The notes: generated by a model not told the origin, from the letters alone. Numbered from the stretch's first letter, positions 29,662-37,664 are shown. The stretch is 55,202 nucleotides of DNA from a virus (IMGVR_UViG_3300041809_002179:1-55202), one strand, 5' to 3'. Translations and numbers: made by a program.

Positions 29662-30608
29662 CGGAGATATATCAGCGCGTCGCAACTAAATTCGTAGAAC
29701 GTATTCACGAAGTCTGGAATTCCGAAGAGACCCTGAAAGAAGAGTTTCTAAAGAGCTTTCCTCATTTACCTTTCACCCGCACCGACAATTGGCAACTCAT
29801 AGCGCATAAGCTCTTCCGTGACGTCTGGCTGGAAGCAGGGCCGGAAGTCAAAGGGGAACCAACCGGATATGATAAGATGGTTGTCATGCGCATAGTGCAC
29901 CCGAAGCTGGATTACAATTTGTTTACACAGATTCTGCTCAACCTTCAAAACTATCTCGGCATAGGCTACGCGGTAGAGGACGCGGAACGCGAAATTCTAG
30001 AGCTGAAAACCAAATGGCCGAAGGAGGCGAAGCTAGATCCCTTTAAACCGGGTAGCAAGATGGTCAAAAATGCTTCCAATTTTGAAGAGATCGCTTACAA
30101 CAATGTTCTTTCAACGCAGCGAGCGCATAAGATCATCTCGGAATTTAGCGGAGGGACTAGTTTTCGAGTTTCTCCAGCCGGCAGCACTCCGGCCTTTGCC
30201 GACAGCCGGAATATATCGATGATTGGTGTAGGTGGGGACAAGTACCTTCGCACATTATCTACCTTGGCTCCTTACTACATCACTTGGGAACAAGCGCCTG
30301 AAATGGCGCGGTTGGATGATCGTCCCGGTTTTCCAAATGGCCTTTGGTTTTGGGCGGAAGGGATTTCTTACCCGTTTGTTTCCAAGTCCGGAGGAGAGAC
30401 TCTACAGGATGTTCTATTCGCCCGCAAGATCATGTATGAGGTCTTTTGGGGCGTAGACATAACCCAGAAGCAGTGTATCCAGATTCCGCGGATGAACTCC
30501 GTGCTGGTGATCACTGGTAAGCCCGCGCCGGATTTGAAGATTGTGGTGGAGAAGTTGCAGGCCCGTTGGCCCGGTGTGATTAGCTTTTATGAAGGAGCGC
30601 GGGGATGA
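29658..30608 (+). CDS. Hypothetical protein
   Basis: 316 aa, SD aaggag. Confidence 0.7.
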   Translation: MTEIYQRVATKFVERIHEVWNSEETLKEEFLKSFPHLPFTRTDNWQLIAHKLFRDVWLEAGPEVKGEPTGYDKMVVMRIVHPKLDYNLFTQILLNLQNYLGIGYAVEDAEREILELKTKWPKEAKLDPFKPGSKMVKNASNFEEIAYNNVLSTQRAHKIISEFSGGTSFRVSPAGSTPAFADSRNISMIGVGGDKYLRTLSTLAPYYITWEQAPEMARLDDRPGFPNGLWFWAEGISYPFVSKSGGETLQDVLFARKIMYEVFWGVDITQKQCIQIPRMNSVLVITGKPAPDLKIVVEKLQARWPGVISFYEGARG

Positions 30609-30853
30609 AAAAAGTCACTTTTGATAATTTGCCCATGGCATTGCAAACCGCCGATGATAAGTGGATCGTACTGTTTGTTTTGAACAACGTAGAGTTTTCT
30701 TCAACCAAAATCGAAACCAAAGAAGAAGCGATGGCTGTTGTACAGCGGGTGGAAGAACGAGTCAAGGAATGGGCCGCTCCAGGGGGAGCGTGGGTGGAAG
30801 AATTGGAAGATCCGCCCCGGCTGGAAATCCCCGGTCCGAATTCCAATCGCTAA
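30605..30853 (+). CDS. Hypothetical protein
   Basis: 82 aa, coupled start. Confidence 0.6.
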   Translation: MKKVTFDNLPMALQTADDKWIVLFVLNNVEFSSTKIETKEEAMAVVQRVEERVKEWAAPGGAWVEELEDPPRLEIPGPNSNR

Positions 30854-30893
30854 TGAATAGCTGATTTTAGAAATTCAGCAGTAGTATATGAAC

Positions 30894-30968
30894 ATGAAAC
30901 GCAGCCTATCACTATCGAGCTATTATCTGTTGCTTAGCAACGGCTGCGCGGAGGTTCGCGTCGGATAA
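30894..30968 (+). CDS. Leader peptide of the Tyr/Leu tRNA operon, MKRSLSLSSYYLLLSNGCAEVRVG
   Basis: Manual translation; codons CTA, CTA, TAT, TAT, CTG, TTG, CTT; embedded in alternative hairpins; alternative in-frame ATG at 30888. Confidence 0.8.
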   Translation: MKRSLSLSSYYLLLSNGCAEVRVG

Positions 30969-31013
30969 AAGACGAGAACTGACCGAAAGCAGCCGCCGAA
31001 AGGCGGCATTTTT
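30900..31013 (+). promoter_or_regulatory. Transcription attenuator (1:2, 2:3, 3:4 hairpins)
   Basis: cgcagcc 30900-06 pairs ggctgcg 30942-48; cggctgc 30941-47 pairs gcagccg 30989-95, which overlaps the terminator stem. Confidence 0.8.
30992..31013 (+). terminator. Intrinsic terminator directly upstream of the tRNA cluster
   Basis: gccgcc-gaaa-ggcggc then attttt. Confidence 0.9.
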
Positions 31014-31024
31014 ATTGTTCGGAC

Positions 31025-31113
31025 GCATGCGATGGGAGAATTGGCTGATCCCAGTGGTCCGTAAAACCACCGCCCTCAGGGGCATGGGGGTTCGATTCCC
31101 TCGGCATGCACCA
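31025..31113 (+). tRNA. tRNA-Tyr(GTA)
   Basis: Stem gtggt/accac, loop CC-GTA-AA, long variable arm, T-loop TTCGATT, ACCA end. Confidence 0.85.
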
Positions 31114-31129
31114 GTTTAGATGTAGACGT

Positions 31130-31216
31130 GCGCTTGTGGCGAAATTGGCAGTCGCGCCAGCTCGAGGGGCTGGTGGTCGCAAGGCCGTGTCGGTTCGAGT
31201 CCGACCAGGCGCACCA
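31130..31216 (+). tRNA. tRNA-Leu(GAG)
   Basis: ccagc/gctgg stem, loop TC-GAG-GG, long variable arm, ACCA end. Confidence 0.88.
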
Positions 31217-31221
31217 AGTTT

Positions 31222-31308
31222 GCAGCTGTGGTGGAATTGGAAGACGCGCTGGACTTAGGATCCAGTGGCCGAAAGGCCGTGCAGGTTCGATGCCTGTCAG
31301 CTGCACCA
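31222..31308 (+). tRNA. tRNA-Leu(TAG)
   Basis: ctgga/tccag stem, loop CT-TAG-GA, ACCA end. Confidence 0.92.
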
Positions 31309-31314
31309 AGATTT

Positions 31315-31404
31315 GCGCGGGTGATGAAATTGGCAGCCATGTAGGATTCAGAATCCTATGCCCTTCAGCAAGGCGTGCCGGTTCGACTCCGGTCTCGCGC
31401 ACCA
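31315..31404 (+). tRNA. tRNA-Leu(CAG)
   Basis: tagga/tccta stem, loop TT-CAG-AA, ACCA end. Confidence 0.92.
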
Positions 31405-31409
31405 AGTTT

Positions 31410-31495
31410 GCGGTTATGGCGGAATGGCAGACGCGCTAGGCTCAAACCCTAGTGGGAGCAATCCCGTGGAGGTTCGACTCCTCTTAGCCGCACCA
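31410..31495 (+). tRNA. tRNA-Leu(CAA)
   Basis: ctagg/cctag stem, loop CT-CAA-AC, ACCA end. Confidence 0.93.
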
Positions 31496-31789
31496 ATCTT
31501 CTAGCTGTTCTCCTTCCTTTACCCGTAGTTTACTTTGAGAGGCAGAGACTCTAGGTCTAGTTTGTGGTAGGAATCCAGCCTCTCCCGAGCCATAGGAGGC
31601 CGCGCTTGTTAATCAGTCCAAAACCTCTTGAGAAGATGATTGAATCCGCCACTTTTCGGCTGGATATGGATTCGACTTTGTTTACCCTGGAGGAGATCCC
31701 TCGTCTTTATCATTTGTTTTTGTCATTAGCCGAAGAAGTGAAAAAGTTGCAAGTGGAGAGTAACAAACTTTATGGGGGTGATGACATCT

Positions 31790-32110
31790 ATGAAGAAAGT
31801 CTCCTTTAACCCGACCACCGAAGCCTTCACAATCACTTGTTGCAAGTTCTCGGTCTCCGCCAAGTACAAGTACGATTGCGCAAATAAGTTCCTCAACCAT
31901 GTTCGTCGACATCATTCAGACGAGTACGAGAAATTGAAAATTCAGGCGCGCAAATTAGCTCGAAGCCAAAACGGCTGCGGATATTTTGACGCCGGTGAAG
32001 ACGGTCCGACTTCGGGCTGGGCTAAGGCAGGCCACGAATTCAGAGAAGCCTGGGTTCGACAAGCATTGATGGACAAGTTCGCAGCCGGGCAAAGTCCGTG
32101 GGGAGGATAG
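31790..32110 (+). CDS. Hypothetical protein
   Basis: ORF of about 106 aa; start uncertain. Confidence 0.55.
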   Translation: MKKVSFNPTTEAFTITCCKFSVSAKYKYDCANKFLNHVRRHHSDEYEKLKIQARKLARSQNGCGYFDAGEDGPTSGWAKAGHEFREAWVRQALMDKFAAGQSPWGG

Positions 32111-32111
32111 C

Positions 32112-32585
32112 ATGAAAACTCATCTCTTGGTGGTGGACGACGACAACGATGTTCGCGAGGGACTCGCTATGCACCTTTCGGACTTAGGGTACGCGGTTCG
32201 CCAAGCACGAAGCGGCGACGAGGGTCTAGAGTACTTCCACAATCGCGGGCCGTTTGGTTGCGTGATTTCCGACTACCAAATGCCTGGTTTGAAGATCAGG
32301 GACGGTGTGGCGATGCTCGCAGCCATCCGCGCCGAAGTACCGGAGCAGAAATGTATCATCCAATCTGCCAGTTGGAACTTAGCGGAATTGATGGAGGAGA
32401 TGGGGATTGGGGATATTCCGATTCTGCACAAGCCTTACAGTTTGAAAGAGATGGCGGAGGCTCTTACGAAAATGGGAGTGTTGGCCGATTATGGGAAGGC
32501 CGATCTCGACGACATTCGTTACGCTCAAGATTGTGAGTCAACAGATGGTGGAGTAGACGGCATAATCCAAGGATGGAAGAAATGA
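32112..32585 (+). CDS. Stand-alone response-regulator receiver domain (CheY-like)
   Basis: LLVVDDD, ISDYQMPG, QSA, HKPY. Confidence 0.9.
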   Translation: MKTHLLVVDDDNDVREGLAMHLSDLGYAVRQARSGDEGLEYFHNRGPFGCVISDYQMPGLKIRDGVAMLAAIRAEVPEQKCIIQSASWNLAELMEEMGIGDIPILHKPYSLKEMAEALTKMGVLADYGKADLDDIRYAQDCESTDGGVDGIIQGWKK

Positions 32586-32700
32586 AAAGTTGGTTAACGG
32601 CCACACTCACCGTTCTCTTTTTGGTCTTGACTGTAATTCGTTGTGCACAGATTTATCAGACGATCCAGTTAACGCACCAAATCGAACACCGGCTCAAGAA

Positions 32701-33234
32701 ATGAATTTACCCACCCGCATCGGTTGCTTCAAAGGTCCATGGGGCTTTTTGTCCAACTTTGCCCCGGCCAAAGTCAAGCTGTGGATAGACGAACGAAATG
32801 TTCCCTACGCTCACGACATCCATCTGTTCATTGCTCTCGATGTAGAAGAATACGAGAGTGTTGAACATGCCTATCACGCAGCCAAGTTTCTAGACCCAAA
32901 GATTCGCGCCTTATTCCGATTGGCCATATCACCCTCCGACGCTAAAGCGCAGGCTCACAAGCTCAAAGACAAGATTCGTCCGGATTGGAAAGAAGTCAGT
33001 CTGGTCATTATGAAGGACCTAGTCCTCCAGAAGTTCGCCGGCAGCATCATGCGCCGGAAGCTGCTGTCGACATTCCAAGCGGAGTTAGTCGAAGGCAACT
33101 GGTGGCATGACAACTTCTATGGTGATTGTCTCTGCGAAGACTGCGCGAACATCCCAGGCGAGAGCCATCTGGGAAAAATACTCATGGAAGTACGGGGGAT
33201 CATCTATGCTCGTGGTTTGTGCAAAGACAACTAA
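32701..33234 (+). CDS. NADAR (YbiA-like) family protein
   Basis: FLSNF, SVEHAYHAAKF, KF...LVEGNWWHDNFYG, LGKILMEVR. Confidence 0.9.
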   Translation: MNLPTRIGCFKGPWGFLSNFAPAKVKLWIDERNVPYAHDIHLFIALDVEEYESVEHAYHAAKFLDPKIRALFRLAISPSDAKAQAHKLKDKIRPDWKEVSLVIMKDLVLQKFAGSIMRRKLLSTFQAELVEGNWWHDNFYGDCLCEDCANIPGESHLGKILMEVRGIIYARGLCKDN

Positions 33235-33598
33235 AACGATGGACGGGACCTACCGCGTTACCCGTTGCCTGCATCCTTGGGAATCGATCGTAACCTGCGG
33301 AGTTCTAGCCGTTTATTTTCCGGACATCAAGCAAAACGATGCTCTCGATTTCATGACTTGGGTACGAAATTTTCAGCCTCTTTTTACGGATGTGATGGCC
33401 GCCGTTATCAGTGATGGATTGTTCTGGAGGACCGGGTCAATAGATGCCCCAACTTCTATAAGCATCCCAACATCGGAAGCTGAAAATCTTATCGACGCCG
33501 CGTTTGGAAAAGTTATCATAACCCCAAACGACAACGATCTCAAGTTTCTGAAGTCCCTGCGGATCAAATGGAGTTCCGATGAAGAAGTTGAAGCCTAA
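33206..33598 (+). CDS. Hypothetical protein
   Basis: ORF overlapping neighbours; start uncertain. Confidence 0.5.
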   Translation: MLVVCAKTTKTMDGTYRVTRCLHPWESIVTCGVLAVYFPDIKQNDALDFMTWVRNFQPLFTDVMAAVISDGLFWRTGSIDAPTSISIPTSEAENLIDAAFGKVIITPNDNDLKFLKSLRIKWSSDEEVEA

Positions 33599-34076
33599 GA
33601 AGCCGAAGATCAACCCGGACTACACTTGGTTCGATCTCAAGGTTGTCCGATCGCCCATCCACCGTTATGGTGTTGTCGCGAACGTGGACATCTCGAAGAA
33701 GAAATGGGTGATAGAGTACACTGGCGTCCTCATGAATCGCAGGCAGCACCGGTGGATGATCGACAATACTTCTGAGGAGCGCCAGATTTACATTTGGCAG
33801 GTGGCCAAAGGGCAAAACGATAGTGCAAACTGGGATTGGGTTATCGACGGCTGGACGAACGGTAGCGGAGCGGAGTTCATCAACCATTCCTGTGACCCCA
33901 ACCTGTACATGCATTTCATTGGACGCCGGGGCTATTATGTTTCTCTTCGCCCGATTAAGAAGGGCGAAGAACTAACCATTGACTATGCTTTTCGGTGGGA
34001 GAAAGATGAGAAGCGCCGGGTGAAGTGTAATTGTGGAAGCCCGAAATGCCGAGGCTGGATCAACAGAGAACGATAA
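33579..34076 (+). CDS. SET-domain protein-lysine methyltransferase
   Basis: SPIHRYGV, IEYTG, FINHSCDPN, GEELTIDY, post-SET CNCGSPKCRG. Confidence 0.95.
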   Translation: MKKLKPKKPKINPDYTWFDLKVVRSPIHRYGVVANVDISKKKWVIEYTGVLMNRRQHRWMIDNTSEERQIYIWQVAKGQNDSANWDWVIDGWTNGSGAEFINHSCDPNLYMHFIGRRGYYVSLRPIKKGEELTIDYAFRWEKDEKRRVKCNCGSPKCRGWINRER

Positions 34077-34355
34077 TCTAACTGAAATTGTTAATTTCCC
34101 AGTAATATGTAGAGGACGGCGAGACTCGCACCACTACGCTCTAGTAAGACCAAAGAGACTTGGGCCTTCGTTGGACCGTCCACTAGCACTGCGAAATTTC
34201 TTAGTGCGCTGCAAAGTGCGCTCGGGGATAAAGTAGCAGTGCAACCAGAAGCTAAGGTTGCCCAGCGATAGAGGCGAAGCCGGATATTGCACTGGGTTGG
34301 CGAACAGCGACACCGGACCTGCCCTCCGGACTATCTGGTTACATGGCATAATTTT

Positions 34356-34421
34356 ATGGCGACGAAGATACCAACGATGCGACCGCAACCCCGAGTGCTC
34401 GGGGTTTCTGAAGGCGACTAA
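34356..34421 (+). CDS. Leader peptide of the Pro/CAT tRNA operon, MATKIPTMRPQPRVLGVSEGD
   Basis: Manual translation; codons ATA, CCA, ATG, CCG, CCC; preceded by TGgCATAAT extended -10-like sequence and no SD. Confidence 0.75.
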   Translation: MATKIPTMRPQPRVLGVSEGD

Positions 34422-34456
34422 GCCTTCGAACCCTGAGCGCAATGCCAGGGTTTGTT
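34387..34456 (+). promoter_or_regulatory. Transcription attenuator (1:2, 2:3, 3:4 hairpins)
   Basis: aaccccga 34387-94 / tcggggtt 34399-406; ctcggggtt 34398-406 / aaccctgag 34429-37 enclosing gaaggc/gccttc; terminator aaccctg 34429-35 / cagggtt 34446-52 + tgtt. Confidence 0.75.
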
Positions 34457-34500
34457 CCGGATTCAATCCCAACAATTCACTGGCTTCCCCGTTTTGATAT

Positions 34501-34578
34501 CGGGACATGGCGCAGTCTGGTTAGCGCACCGGTCTGGGGGACCGGGGGTCGCCAGTTCGAATCTGGCTGTCCCGACCA
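34501..34578 (+). tRNA. tRNA-Pro(GGG)
   Basis: C1-G72, ccggt/accgg stem, loop CT-GGG-GG, ACCA end. Confidence 0.95.
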
Positions 34579-34589
34579 ATTTTTGAATC

Positions 34590-34782
34590 GACCGCATAGC
34601 TCAAAGGTTAGAGCGGCGCAAATGGACAGGGCGTGGCAAGGGCAGCAAGTTGCGGAAGAACCGAAAAGGCTGTTGAGCCGGAGGCCGGGGATAATCCGGT
34701 CACTCTACGGAGTGTAGGGAATCGCGTTGCAGCTGTCTAAACGGCGGAAGCCGGATGGGGTTCGAGTCCCCTGCGGTCATCA
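34590..34782 (+). ncRNA. tRNA-like RNA with a large structured insert in place of the anticodon arm
   Basis: Acceptor gaccgca/tgcggtc, D-arm tagctcaaaggttagagc, T-arm gggg-ttcgagt-cccc, ATCA end. Confidence 0.6.
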
Positions 34783-34794
34783 GTTTAGGAGTAT

Positions 34795-34871
34795 CAGGGT
34801 ATAGCTCAGCCTGGTAGAGCGCACGTTTCGGGAACGTGAGGTCGCTGGTTCAATCCCAGTTACCCTGACCA
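34795..34871 (+). tRNA. tRNA-Pro(CGG)
   Basis: cacgt/acgtg stem, loop TT-CGG-GA, ACCA end. Confidence 0.95.
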
Positions 34872-34886
34872 ATTTAGGAGGATGTT

Positions 34887-35006
34887 ATGGGGTTGAGGCT
34901 GCTGCTTGTAGGCTTGATGGTTTCAGGAAGCCTGATGCTTGGTGCAAGTGTGCTTCTCAGCGTCATGGCTCTGGTTGAGAAGTACCGGCCATCGGGTAAG
35001 TTTTAA
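34887..35006 (+). CDS. Small single-TM peptide between tRNAs
   Basis: SD aggagg; MGLRLLLVGLMVSGSLMLGASVLLSVMALVEKYRPSGKF. Confidence 0.5.
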   Translation: MGLRLLLVGLMVSGSLMLGASVLLSVMALVEKYRPSGKF

Positions 35007-35010
35007 GTTT

Positions 35011-35087
35011 CGGCGATTAGCGCAGTCGGGTAGCGCACATGCCTTGGGCGCATGGGGTCGGGGGTTCAAATCCCTCATCGCCGACCA
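35011..35087 (+). tRNA. tRNA-Pro(TGG)
   Basis: catgc/gcatg stem, loop CT-TGG-GC, ACCA end. Confidence 0.95.
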
Positions 35088-35327
35088 ATTTTGAGTGTGC
35101 GGTCGGGCACCCCACTCCTTGCTTCTGCTTGGGTGCAAGTGGTGCATGCGAGTGCCGACCGCCTTGAATTTCGGAGGAACAATGTTCGAGGCAGACAAAT
35201 GGCAGCACAAGAATTGCGGCGGGCAACCCCGTGAGTTTGAGCCAGGAAAATGGGAGTGCACGAAATGCAACGGTGCATGGTACGCCGGGGTTGATTTCTT
35301 CAAGTACCTGGCAAATGTAGTGTTCGT

Positions 35328-35404
35328 GGCTCTGTAGACTGGAGACGGTTCCAGCGTGGCCTCATAAGCCAATCACGTCGGTTCGATTCCGACTAGAGCC
35401 ACCA
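35328..35404 (+). tRNA. Elongator tRNA(CAT): Met or Ile2
   Basis: ggctctg/tagagcc acceptor, loop CT-CAT-AA, atypical D-arm, ACCA end. Confidence 0.8.
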
Positions 35405-35552
35405 AATTTAACTTTCAAGAACTATTTCAGCGCTGTGGCAAGGGAACCGGCTCCTTCTTTGGTCCGGCCAGCGCATAACACATAAGGAGGATATCAGATG
35501 GCTATGCACACGTCCCATACCGCGTAATGTGTGGGCGGAAAGGCTTAGTCAT

Positions 35553-35852
35553 ATGGATCATCCGAAGGATCGCCGGGAACGGCGGGCCGTGCGGGATGTT
35601 GTAATCGCTCGTAGAAAGTTTATCGTCACCCAAATTTGGGGACAAGACTCATATAGTAAGAGCAGCGACTTTCAACGTAAGTGGATCGCTGAAATGGAGT
35701 GGGGTAAGTACGCCAAGTTCAATTTGAACTGTGGTTGTATGATGTGCCACTCTCCGAAGTATCTCAGTGCCAAGCGCAAGCGCCGGTTGGCCCTAAAATT
35801 TTCTGAGTCACAGGCAGAATTTCGCCATAATGACAACGCAATTAAGTATTGA
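35553..35852 (+). CDS. Basic hypothetical protein
   Basis: Arg/Lys-rich with CGCMMC. Confidence 0.55.
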   Translation: MDHPKDRRERRAVRDVVIARRKFIVTQIWGQDSYSKSSDFQRKWIAEMEWGKYAKFNLNCGCMMCHSPKYLSAKRKRRLALKFSESQAEFRHNDNAIKY

Positions 35853-35858
35853 AGATTG

Positions 35859-36122
35859 ATGGCAAAGACCAAGAGATCGGAACTTAGAGAAAAATTGCTG
35901 GCCTTGGTGACGGAGATGGGTGTATTGCCTCCTGCCGAAGCCAAGCGGCTCGCGAGTAGACTTTGTGACATGGCATATGGTTGGATGAGGACTCCTGAAT
36001 CTGAAGGAGATGCTTTTCTGACAGCTTTCAAAGCCAAGTTGCTTGAAGAGTTTTCGCCGAAGGTGAAGAAGAGAAAGGAAAATAGTCGGGGTGGTGGGCT
36101 TAAAAGCAGCCATCCTCAATGA
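35859..36122 (+). CDS. Hypothetical protein
   Basis: AGTATT motif 14 nt upstream; 3' end overlaps the structured RNA. Confidence 0.5.
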   Translation: MAKTKRSELREKLLALVTEMGVLPPAEAKRLASRLCDMAYGWMRTPESEGDAFLTAFKAKLLEEFSPKVKKRKENSRGGGLKSSHPQ

Positions 36123-36282
36123 GTGTCTCGCTGAATCCTCGAATACGAGGTCGTGGCTGCCGAAGAAGGGCCGAACGTACTCACGCGGAAGGCAAGAGGA
36201 TTGCAGTTCAGCTACCGAGTAAGAAGCGGCTGACCGACATTGAGTTGTGGCCAGGACTTTAGCGTAACAGCACGCCTCGACT
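36084..36282 (+). ncRNA. RNA resembling 23S rRNA helices 43-44 (uL11-binding site) with internal insert
   Basis: GGTGGGCTTAAAAGCAGCCATCC ... AGCGTAACAGCAC closed by agtcggggtg/cgcctcgact. Confidence 0.7.
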
Positions 36283-36372
36283 TTACGACTTTATGATTTC
36301 AAGTGGCTGCTCCGCACTAAACGACGGAGCGAGGAACTAAGTATCATTGAGGGATACCAGCCACAGTTTTGA

Positions 36373-36449
36373 AGCGGGGTAGAGCAGCCAGGTAGCTTGT
36401 CGGGCTCATAATCCGAAGGTCGTCAGTTCAAATCTGACCCCCGCAACCA
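36373..36449 (+). tRNA. Initiator tRNA-fMet(CAT)
   Basis: 1:72 mismatch, tcggg-CTCATAA-tccga, ACCA end. Confidence 0.9.
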
Positions 36450-36778
36450 ATTTGGAAGACCGGAGTCCGCGGACCCATCCGAGGCTATAGCGTCGTGCAT
36501 CATAGCACTAGGCCAGTTTGGCTGATGGCGATTAACTGCCCAAACACAGTATCGGATACCCGGTCACCATTTTTGTATCAGTCAGTCCGGTGGGAGTTGC
36601 ATCAACCATATGTTCGAACCGGATCCGGCAGGAGTCGAGATGGGCGCACTCGAGCTGACGTAGCTTTGGTCCGAGGCCCGTTATGGGCGAGTGGCCTTAG
36701 CGGGGAAGCTCCCTTGTCCCTTTACCCGTGGTTGGGAGTCCGCTGCAGCGGATCACGGGTCACATTTTAGGAGTGAGA

Positions 36779-36994
36779 ATGGGTAGCCCTTCAGAATATA
36801 ACAGACGGCAGTGGCTTTCCGACAATCCCCATCATTATGTAGCGTCTCGGGGAGAAGAACCTCTCCCTTTCTTAAAGTGCTCGTCATCGGTCTGTCCCAG
36901 ACCAGCGAGCATTACTCGGAACAAACTTGTGTTCTGTCAACCCTGCTTTGACCAGGACGAGAGACTAAAGAACGACTATCGACCCGGACTATGA
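36779..36994 (+). CDS. Small Cys-containing protein
   Basis: SD aggag; CSSSVC...CQPC. Confidence 0.45.
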   Translation: MGSPSEYNRRQWLSDNPHHYVASRGEEPLPFLKCSSSVCPRPASITRNKLVFCQPCFDQDERLKNDYRPGL

Positions 36995-37275
36995 ACCTCT
37001 TCCAGCTAGGCCAATTCAAACTTCATTCAGGCCAAGTCTCAGATTTCAAGATCCAATGTGAAGCGTTGACGGACGCTGACCTAGACTGCATAGCGTTTCT
37101 GTTGTCCCGTAGGGTGCCTCCGTTTGGTTCGGTTGAAGGTGTTCCGACGGGCGGTAATGCTCTCGCCTTGAAGATGGAACGTTATATTGTGAAAGGAAAT
37201 CATCGTCTGTTGGTTGTAGACGATGTGTTTACTACCGGAAGATCGCTGAGCAACCCTACAATCCTGAAACTCTGA
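36991..37275 (+). pseudogene. Truncated orotate phosphoribosyltransferase-like gene
   Basis: GQFKLHSG, EGVPTGG, LLVVDDVFTTGRS, then stops right after the PRPP motif. Confidence 0.6.
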
Positions 37276-37664
37276 AGAGGATCGTAAATCTTAATGCGAA
37301 CTTCCCCAAGGCACTATTCGCTGTGGACATCAAGGGGGTCACGCCGGAGGATTACGAAAAGAATACCCGGAAACCTTTCAAGGCTGAGCTGTTTTGGTCC
37401 AATCTGAATGCATTGGTGGATCACGGAATCAATTTCTACATCACCTACACAAATCCGGACGAAAGGTTCCGGCCCGCGTTCGAGTACAAACTCAAATATC
37501 ACTTCGGAAGCGATGTTCTCAACGACAGCTTTGTGATTCCTTTGATTGACTATGACGCTACGCCGTTCGTGGACATTCGACCGCTGCATGGCAACTCGTG
37601 TTGCTCAATGTCCGTGGATGATTGGAACCCTCAAACTTCGGGTGGAAACTCTCCCAAGTTGTAA
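37245..37664 (+). pseudogene. C-terminal fragment of a possible radical-SAM-like gene
   Basis: Frame is open upstream of the GTG at 37323; AVDIKGVTPEDYEKNT..LFWSNL resembles a radical-SAM barrel end; no CxxxCxxC present. Confidence 0.3.

Follow-up and report, generated by a model that had tools for sequence, protein, structure and literature searches.

Two transfer RNA (tRNA) operons in a 55,202-nucleotide (nt) stretch of viral DNA (IMGVR_UViG_3300041809_002179:1-55202; hereafter, the window) are each preceded by a short leader open reading frame (ORF) whose codons list the anticodons of the tRNAs that follow, and by RNA segments capable of alternative pairings. With a probability of about 0.82, both elements are ribosome-mediated (leader-peptide) transcription attenuators that regulate the phage's own tRNAs. 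All results are computational, coming from sequence comparison, folding models and assembled RNA contigs, and scans for Rfam families, promoters and terminators were run on positions 30000-37500. Because the window taken alone is weakly significant (P 0.009-0.04 per leader), the case rests on comparison with other operons and other phages. Anatomy, conservation, codon-anticodon tracking across operons and phage lineages, and antiterminator complementarity are direct observations and are laid out below in that order.

The first element stands before a Tyr/Leu operon and consists of the following features.

30879-30889, plus strand: promoter-like motif CAGTAGTATAT, with a -10-like TAGTAT at 30882-30887
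30894-30968, plus strand: leader ORF 1, 24 residues, MKRSLSLSSYYLLLSNGCAEVRVG and a stop; an alternative ATG at 30888 adds MN (26 residues)
30900-30906, plus strand: region 0, CGCAGCC, which pairs with 30942-48 in the minimum-free-energy fold of the free leader
30906-30935, plus strand: control codons CTA TCA CTA TCG AGC TAT TAT CTG TTG CTT
30942-30948, plus strand: region 1, GGCTGCG, predicted 5' strand of the antiterminator, within the ORF
30954-30979, plus strand: stop-codon hairpin GTTCGCGTC..GACGAGAAC, with TAA (30966-68) in its loop
30989-30997, plus strand: region 2, GCAGCCGCC, overlapping the 5' arm of the terminator
30992-31007, plus strand: terminator 1, GCCGCCGAAAGGCGGC, stem GCCGCC/GGCGGC of 6 G-C pairs, with a T-run at 31009-31019
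31025-31495, plus strand: tRNA operon 1, Tyr-GTA, Leu-GAG, Leu-TAG, Leu-CAG, Leu-CAA (ARAGORN and Rfam)

Read from 30894, the leader 1 peptide is M K R S L S L S S Y Y L L L S N G C A E V R V G. Its control codons are cognate to Leu-TAG, Tyr-GTA, Leu-CAG, Leu-CAA and Leu-GAG, which covers 5/5 anticodon types of the operon; 7 of 23 codons are matched (binomial P 0.009), and the chance of full coverage is 0.036. Region 1 is complementary to CGCAGCC (30900-06) and also to GCAGCC (30989-94), and in the nascent-transcript fold it pairs with the latter (duplex -15.1 kcal/mol, z -1.78 relative to shuffles). The stop-codon hairpin has an equivalent in relatives (GTTC..GGG / CCC..GAAC). Terminator 1 is the strongest terminator-like site of the region and ends 5 nt before tRNA-Tyr. 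As folded in the models, this layout is the four-region arrangement of a classical attenuator.

The second element precedes a Pro/Met operon, the two tRNA clusters lying on the same strand according to both ARAGORN and Rfam.

34100-34110, plus strand: promoter-like motif CAGTAATATGT, with a -10-like TAATAT at 34103-08
34112-34355, plus strand: RNA of ~240 nt from the promoter-like motif to leader 2
34356-34421, plus strand: leader ORF 2, 21 residues, MATKIPTMRPQPRVLGVSEGD and a stop
34368-34391, plus strand: control codons ATA CCA ACG ATG CGA CCG CAA CCC
34389-34456, plus strand: switch region, with region 0 CCCCGAG at 34389-95, region 1 GTGCTCGGGGTTT at 34395-407 and region 2 GAACCCTGAGCGC at 34428-40
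34410-27, plus strand: stop-codon hairpin
34429-52, plus strand: terminator-like hairpin AACCCTG..CAGGGTT, -9.5 kcal/mol, with TTTGTT at 34451-56
34501-35404, plus strand: tRNA operon 2, Pro-GGG, a tRNA-like element, Pro-CGG, Pro-TGG, Met-CAT, with two small ORFs interspersed (ARAGORN and Rfam)

The leader 2 peptide, M A T K I P T M R P Q P R V L G V S E G D, is encoded with CCA, ATG, CCG and CCC, so that 4/4 downstream anticodon types are covered; 4 of its 20 codons are matched (binomial P 0.04), and full coverage has a chance of 0.031. In order along the RNA come the CCCCGAG/CTCGGGG pairing, the stop-codon hairpin and the terminator-like hairpin. The RNA upstream of the ORF (34112-34355) is partly conserved at one related locus, L035 (94% identity over 73 nt and 90% over 52 nt), and may be a stable small RNA or an additional regulatory domain. 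An earlier note on this DNA had held that both clusters begin with a leader ORF, alternative hairpins and a terminator, that each leader carries codons read by its downstream tRNAs, and that the two leaders share no sequence. The two ORFs, the alternative pairings, the codon matches and the lack of shared sequence were all recovered, while the hairpin after leader 2 qualifies only as a weak terminator candidate.

A blastn search of the phage collection for close relatives of the window returned tRNA-sized matches only, and none was found through its SET-domain protein. Relatives were fetched instead via a neighbouring 316-residue protein, a choice blind to the leader, yielding 8 and then 26 viral plus 66 metagenome loci. 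Among these, 53 had tRNA-Tyr and sufficient upstream sequence, and they collapsed to 27 distinct upstream regions. A homologous short ORF and a GCCGCC..GGCGGC terminator stand directly upstream of tRNA-Tyr in 25 of the 27, while in the other two (L039 and L085) they lie 250-275 nt further upstream, a protein ORF being inserted before the tRNAs; the Tyr/Leu leader and terminator are thus present in 27/27 distinct loci. The terminator stem is paired in 161 of 162 cells (99.4%) across the 27 leaders, with three pairs changed on both sides. Every one of the leaders contains at least one each of CTA, CTG, TTG, CTT and TAT, in 20 different orders. In the long ORFs of these phages CTA makes up 7.8% of Leu codons and TAT 33% of Tyr codons, and by genomic usage the chance of finding all four Leu codons in one leader is 0.017-0.24 per leader.

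Leader codons also follow changes in operon content, with operon boundaries set by a 1,500-nt gap rule and membership uncorrected for the tRNAs that ARAGORN overlooks. Within the Tyr/Leu family, 6 of 27 leaders contain TTA, while three operons include Leu-TAA (L029, L043 and L085), each of them with a TTA leader; TTA leaders lacking Leu-TAA in the operon are those of L004/L053 and L005 (Fisher ~0.007, calculated by hand from the counts 3, 0, 3 and 21, five truncated operons included). The L029 operon includes Ser-GCT, Ser-TGA and Ser-GGA, and its leader holds 10 Ser codons. A Pro leader with the consensus M..MRPTPMFRPC.PT..GG was found at 8 of 9 distinct Pro-cluster loci, seven of them within 420 nt upstream and the eighth, L031, ~600 nt upstream. 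Throughout, Pro leaders hold CCA, CCG and either CCT or CCC, and that of L031 has TTT twice, with Phe-GAA in its operon.

These loci also bear on a ribosome-free switch, in which tRNA anticodons would pair directly with the run of leader codons, as in a T-box, and so control the terminator. The leader codons are indeed complementary to the downstream anticodons, as such a device would have them. However, they are arranged in a single frame, which opens with an ATG and closes with a stop codon that ends 20-29 nt before the terminator arm in 27/27 Tyr/Leu leaders, and the distance from ATG to CTT is 39, 42, 48, 51 or 54 nt, always a multiple of three, in 26 of 27, the odd value (L016) being a mis-pick by the regular expression. 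Furthermore, one RNA would have to read up to 14 anticodons (L108, below), and a cmscan of 30000-37500 at E values up to 1 found no T-box, neither Stem I with its specifier loop nor the T-box antiterminator sequence, and no other Rfam family, returning tRNAs only, plus two weak antisense matches to Plastid-ycf2. Direct reading by tRNA is therefore very improbable.

Two complete megaphages related to the window, G001 (455,708 bp, 64 tRNA hits) and G002 (316,945 bp, 62 tRNA hits), provide ten further leader-operon pairs, in which short ORF and terminator units of unrelated sequence precede Ile/Thr/Gln, Val/Gly/Ala/Asp/Glu/Cys, Ser/Leu-TAA and Lys/Arg/His/Gln/Asn groups and one fused operon. Examples are given here.

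L105: leader ..KSSRKHQRRNNRW.., before Gln-CTG, His, Arg-CCG, Arg-ACG, Asn and Lys-CTT
L108: leader MRNRKPNPMQWQPKRHFSRP.., before a fused His/Arg/Asn/Lys/Phe/Met/Pro/Gln/Trp operon; 14/14 anticodon types covered
L109 and L102: leaders ..VDLIEAVAAVCEGGD.. and ..GAVGAVAAVCEAEG.., respectively, before Val/Gly/Ala/Asp/Glu/Cys operons
L104: leader ..LSSSSSSSRS.. (TTA TCG TCG TCC TCA AGT AGC TCC), before four Ser tRNAs and Leu-TAA
L100 and L110: Thr/Ile/Gln leaders with CAA, before Ile, Thr and Gln-TTG

Taken together with the two operons of the window, 85 of 86 anticodon types in these 12 operons are covered by their leaders, the sole exception being Gly-CCC in L102. Among 720 permutations in G001 and 24 in G002, the true assignment of leaders to operons scores highest. 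The correspondence extends to synonymous codons, as CAA accompanies Gln-TTG (L100 and L110) and CAG accompanies Gln-CTG (L105 and L108). No leader was found for an Ala-TGC tRNA upstream of the L102 leader.

The same design recurs in phages of independent lineages. LR756501.1, a 735-kb AT-rich uncultured phage that matched the window through tRNA-Leu only, has five leader-operon units with a different terminator, CCCAATCA..TGATTGGG, and its leader tails end in LIG, copying the terminator 3' arm. Its leaders, and those of two cultured phages, are as follows.

LR756501.1: Leu leader CTA CTT CTG TTA CTC TTG
LR756501.1: leader ..YNDYCIND.., before Ile, Cys, Asp, Asn and Tyr
LR756501.1: leader ..IINMIQEQMQQIQ.., before Met, Gln, Ile-TAT and Glu
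LR756501.1: leader ..KHSKHFSSSSKWF.., before Trp, His, Phe, Lys and Ser
LR756501.1: leader ..TPAPAVAFRRGTGTGTGT.., before Arg, Thr, Val, Ala, Gly and Pro
Caulobacter phage CcrColossus: leader MMTYRNNVRQIRVRQFN.., followed by a strong terminator and then Val, Ile, Gln, Asn and Arg
Brevundimonas phage Gurke: leader ..YRQNVQNIRVVRFY.., followed by Tyr, Val, Ile, Gln and Asn
Brevundimonas phage Gurke, second unit: leader ..KLSHKLSLHSTAASALSTLAYAPATLSPKSP.., before Pro, Lys, Leu, His, Ala and Ser

In a pairing test on four of the LR756501.1 units the true pairing ranked 1 of 24, with lower coverage in some units (11/14 anticodon types in L116, and 5/6 each in L113 and L114). A matched leader is found as well in Brevundimonas phage Papperlapapp, and both leader units are present in Caulobacter phage CcrKarma. 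In these Caulobacter phages, leader ORFs were placed at L121 92-229 and 2493-2591 and at L119 14891-14986. The CcrColossus leader region is matched by 31 phage records, two of which (Sphingobium) match only in the tRNA part. With these results, two checks that the earlier note had called for came out in favour of its proposal: homologous clusters keep leader and terminator (27/27 Tyr/Leu and 8/9 Pro loci), and leader codons follow operon content, whether TTA with Leu-TAA (L104 included), the 10 Ser codons of L029 or CAA/CAG with Gln-TTG/Gln-CTG. Beyond the homologous clusters, other operons of relatives and of unrelated phages have different leaders built on the same logic. The note's interpretation of the clusters as operons gated by codon-matched attenuators is supported by these outcomes.

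In a frame control on 16 leaders, 199 of 450 codons were matched to the operon in the ORF frame, as opposed to 70/450 and 72/450 in the other two frames. Among real short ORFs of 18-45 codons from the same loci (187-378 per genome), the share equalling the leader in both match and coverage was 0.000-0.021, the leader itself being included in the pool. A coincidence of short ORFs and hairpins with tRNA clusters might be entertained from the window alone, given its modest P values and given that the standard promoter/terminator scan of 30000-37500 listed 10 terminator sites compared with 6.9 in shuffles, which is no enrichment. Chance is nonetheless contradicted by the conservation, pairing, frame and independent-lineage results and is hardly credible. 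A preference for U-ending codons where the tRNA has G34 was also considered and set aside as too weak (42 U and 37 C in leaders, against a background of 40% U).

A more conventional account would treat the short ORFs as small proteins or as meaningless, and the hairpins as terminators that insulate tRNA genes having promoters of their own. Existing annotation agrees with it: in CcrKarma, the leader of a Pro/Thr/Lys/Leu/Ala/Ser tRNA operon is recorded as the hypothetical protein gp083 (L121 92-229; JX100811.1 49065-49202), and hairpins are annotated only as rho-independent terminators. Some leaders are, moreover, parted from their tRNAs by an inserted ORF. In most Tyr/Leu loci, by contrast, the gap between the T-run window and the first tRNA measures only 3-18 nt, probably too little to house a promoter. 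All leader peptides mirror their respective operons despite having no sequence in common from one operon to the next; the codon match is frame-specific; the 3' end of the ORF is complementary to the terminator arm in 28/31 leaders; and an RNA contig crosses the terminator into tRNA-Tyr. The insulator account is accordingly quite improbable. ARAGORN adds Thr-GGT and Ala-TGC tRNAs to the gp083 operon that are unannotated in the record. The inserted protein ORFs, of ~75-110 residues, lie between attenuator and tRNAs at L039 7580-7810, L085 9100-9260, L100 400-780, L104 and L110, a position in which they would be co-regulated with the tRNAs.

Ribosome-mediated attenuation calls for an antiterminator that competes with the terminator, and both window leaders contain the corresponding alternative pairings: region 0 with 1, region 1 with 2 (the antiterminator, overlapping the terminator 5' arm) and region 2 with 3 (the terminator). 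When the duplex between the 3' part of the ORF and the terminator 5' arm was compared with composition-matched shuffles, z fell below -1.64 in 28 of 31 leaders, with a mean z of -2.9. This complementarity accounts for the Gly-rich tails of the leaders (GGC GGC facing GCCGCC). In L029 and L109 the terminator arms are flipped and region 1 is correspondingly C-rich, so that pairing with the arm is retained.

Folding models with the ribosome placed along the leader, its footprint limits being assumed values, suggest how position would set the outcome. At equilibrium, the predicted terminator probability across 16 leaders averaged 0.62-0.65 with the ribosome on matched codons, compared with 0.95-0.96 with the ribosome beyond them, and was lower in 15 of the 16. 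In window leader 2, ribosome-masked folding gave 0.00-0.22 with the A site at ATG to CAA and 0.82-1.00 afterwards. Because only around half of the leaders gave a clear equilibrium result, with L110, L113 and the second L111 leader flat, equilibrium folding was not kept as the sole evidence for a switch and the nascent transcript was modelled too. In those folds the arm was sequestered with the A site on control codons in 12 of 12 leaders modelled. Ribosome advance freed the arm in four cases (window leader 2, L108, L110 and L104) and freed part of it in window leader 1. The models thus favour a direction in which stalling leads to the antiterminator and a run to the stop codon leads to the terminator.

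Transcription and initiation can be considered from motifs and RNA contigs. Exact copies of the motif CAGTA[GA]TAT occur in the 55 kb only at 30879 and 34100, immediately before the first leader and before the RNA that precedes the second, and most homologous leaders have a related -10-like motif (GGTATTATGTAG and variants) upstream of them. The -10-like hexamer starts 11-12 nt before the leader ATG in window leader 1, L001 and L012, the ATG at 30894 being 7 nt past the hexamer; this short spacing suggests that the mRNAs of window leader 1, L001 and L012 may be leaderless, starting at or next to the AUG. Judged by the same spacing, other family members have 5' untranslated regions of ~8-55 nt. 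Three metatranscriptome runs (X1, X2 and X3) cover the stretch as contigs, in which starts, ends and levels are unreadable and, for X2 and X3, uncovered parts are uninformative. The deepest X2 contig (34119-34626, depth 18) starts ~10 nt past the -10-like hexamer and runs through leader 2 into tRNA-Pro. In X3, the deepest cover of the stretch is at 34170-34368 (depth 9), and the contig that crosses terminator 1, 30964-31155, extends into tRNA-Tyr and tRNA-Leu. The contigs fit co-transcription of leaders with tRNAs and prove neither regulation nor a single transcript.

Several observations weigh against attenuation by leader peptides. The hairpin after leader 2 has only TTTGTT as its U-tract and was missed by the standard terminator scan, and its equivalents in L006, L021 and L035 have no U-run. 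In window leader 1 the equilibrium switch is partial (mean 0.81-0.89, minimum 0.31-0.65, compared with 0.99 beyond the control codons), and in the three leaders with flat folds it is absent. Five Ser codons in window leader 1 have no downstream Ser tRNA. X1 covers the whole stretch evenly and may therefore hold DNA. No leader was found for Pro-CGG at L003 or for the G001 clusters L101 (two CTA-anticodon tRNAs) and L106, and Xanthomonas phage XacN1, where no grouping of tRNAs by amino acid is seen, has no matched leader. The related leaders are, in addition, non-independent samples. A Shine-Dalgarno-like motif within 18 nt of the ATG is present in only 13 of 37 leaders and in neither leader of the window, although neighbouring small ORFs there do carry GGAGG. 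Finally, the models predict that nascent RNA free of ribosomes folds into the antiterminator, with 0.55-1.00 of the terminator arm sequestered, so that an untranslated leader might also read through.

The last two points would suit attenuators that sense general translation capacity, such as ribosome availability or a global slowing, with codon content incidental: 24 of 37 leaders are without the Shine-Dalgarno-like motif, and any failure of translation could open the operon. Yet a generic sensor needs no codons that list anticodons, whereas coverage is nearly complete in the 12 operons and the true pairings are the best of 720 and 24, and it gives no reason for codon sets to change with operon membership. 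We regard a generic sensor as improbable, if less so than the other alternatives. None of these rivals explains why unrelated leaders carry, in a single frame, codon sets that track the content of their operons.

If both elements are leader-peptide attenuators, a cycle of the following kind can be envisaged. Transcription would begin at a phage promoter just upstream of the leader, and a ribosome would translate the 21-24-codon ORF. While all listed aminoacyl-tRNAs are plentiful, the ribosome would reach the stop codon and cover region 1, the GC-rich terminator would form, and transcription would end a few bases before the first tRNA. When any listed tRNA is scarce, the ribosome would stall upstream of region 1, leaving region 1 to pair with the terminator 5' arm as the antiterminator, and RNA polymerase would read through to make the full tRNA operon. 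Because the product tRNA is the thing sensed, each operon would be a closed negative-feedback loop on its own isoacceptors. From the observations above we infer leader translation, the in vivo direction and magnitude of the switch and its physiological trigger. The trigger could be phage-gene demand, host tRNA loss or tRNA-cleaving defences. Rescue from anticodon nucleases, the counter-defence role raised in the earlier note, is one possible use of such a sensor, and simple supply-demand feedback fits the data equally.

On balance, a broader picture seems to hold, if with clearly less assurance than the mechanism itself: large phages belonging to several unrelated lineages, which extend from Caulobacter phages in culture to megaphages of 735 kb, would run a private tRNA pool under codon-resolved supply-demand control, in which the leader of every operon is a table of contents of its anticodons and a shortage of any isoacceptor re-opens exactly that operon. 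The shortage could then reflect the codon demand of the phage, the removal of host tRNAs by the phage itself or the action of host anticodon nucleases.

Several other features of the region were recorded. The window phage has genes for a tail fibre, a helicase/terminase-like protein, a UvsX-like recombinase and a DNA transfer protein, and genes for receiver-domain, NADAR-domain and SET-domain proteins lie between the two tRNA operons (32112-34076). Beyond operon 2, at a third site, is a tRNA with a CAT anticodon (36373-36449), whose acceptor end and anticodon stem we take to be like those of bacterial initiator tRNA; no leader or terminator was seen in the upstream DNA inspected. The small ORFs of operon 2 (34887-35006 and 35182-35337), each with a strong GGAGG ribosome-binding site, encode one 39-residue hydrophobic peptide and one 51-residue Cys-rich peptide, neither with a Pfam match; if operon 2 is transcribed as a single unit, its attenuator would control both of these ORFs as well.

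Between Pro-GGG and Pro-CGG, the tRNA-like element (34588-34783) keeps acceptor, D and T arms and has an insertion of ~100-120 nt at the place of the anticodon arm. Its folding z-score is -2.2, and its inner part is 81% identical to a G002 stretch between Met and Pro tRNAs (L108 2874-2953). It is called by ARAGORN in intron mode only and its identity is doubtful; comparable insertion-bearing calls were made at L102 733-860 and L105 2927-3115, and the tRNA identities assigned in intron mode were set aside as doubtful. Paired CTA-anticodon tRNAs, that is, amber suppressors, occur in L101 (G001:25600-27100), L117 (LR756501.1:689700-690800) and L112 1700-1858 (XacN1, where they are annotated tRNA-Sup), with no leader seen before any of these pairs; the window has no amber-suppressor tRNA. 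Their presence in large phages related and unrelated to the window hints at stop-codon recoding.

The regulation and purpose of phage tRNAs have been debated for decades, the alternatives being codon compensation and the replacement of tRNAs lost to host shut-off or defences. If the attenuators operate as proposed, these phages gauge the sufficiency of tRNAs codon by codon and respond, and they possess a built-in tRNA-depletion sensor. The grouping of tRNAs into fixed sets in these genomes would be explained, and annotators would gain a rule for dozens of short ORFs, CcrKarma gp083 among them, that currently carry the label hypothetical. Since the same design is present in cultured phages of Caulobacter crescentus, the proposal is directly testable in a model host. 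More speculatively, the leaders might serve as natural codon-specific reporters of tRNA availability.

In the full-text literature searched, supplements and most subscription journals being outside its scope, no description of leader-peptide attenuators before tRNA genes was found. The annotation of phiCbK-like Caulobacter phages deals with the same genomes, their tRNA clusters and predicted rho-independent terminators, and reports that Rfam gave no functional RNA element besides tRNAs (PMC3556154); the words 'attenuat' and 'leader' are absent from the main texts of that article and of the huge-phage paper. Phage tRNAs are described as replacing tRNAs destroyed by host defences (PMC10264068; PMC10802454). 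Phages of that kind supply their own isoacceptors when the host pool fails, as the window phage would, and leader-peptide regulation goes unmentioned in the abstracts of both sources.

The closest parallels are the leader-peptide transcription attenuators of amino-acid operons, including trpL, hisL, leuL, thrL, pheL and ilvL. As in those systems, the phage elements combine a short ORF containing regulatory codons with a terminator ahead of the first gene and with an antiterminator, which would compete for the terminator 5' arm according to ribosome position, and, as in the ilv and thr leaders, several amino acids would be sensed by one leader. Set against the class as a whole, a short ORF, regulatory codons, a terminator (leader 1) and, by computation, an antiterminator were found, whereas the output is not a biosynthesis or synthetase gene. 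Unlike amino-acid attenuators, the phage leaders would regulate tRNAs rather than biosynthesis, transport or synthetase genes, which makes the sensed molecule the product itself; they name as many as 14 anticodon types, resolved to synonymous codons (CAA as distinct from CAG, or TTA); and they are carried by phages, several apparently on leaderless mRNAs. Leader peptides are treated in PMC2965389, and pheL in PMC3082878.

T-box riboswitches likewise sense tRNA status and control a choice between terminator and antiterminator, but they do so through one specifier codon and direct tRNA binding without a ribosome, upstream of synthetase and amino-acid genes, where the phage element has an ORF. 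Synthetase genes are also placed under codon-specific ribosome stalling by pheST-type attenuators. There, the output is a synthetase and one amino acid is sensed, whereas the output of the phage leaders would be tRNA. The phage leaders would be the first attenuator class in which the sensed tRNA is itself the output, and stable RNA genes in direct autoregulation would be a new class of output for this mechanism. The mechanism is that of the textbooks; what appears to be new is the tRNA target, the direct autoregulation, the synonymous-codon resolution and the spread in large phages.

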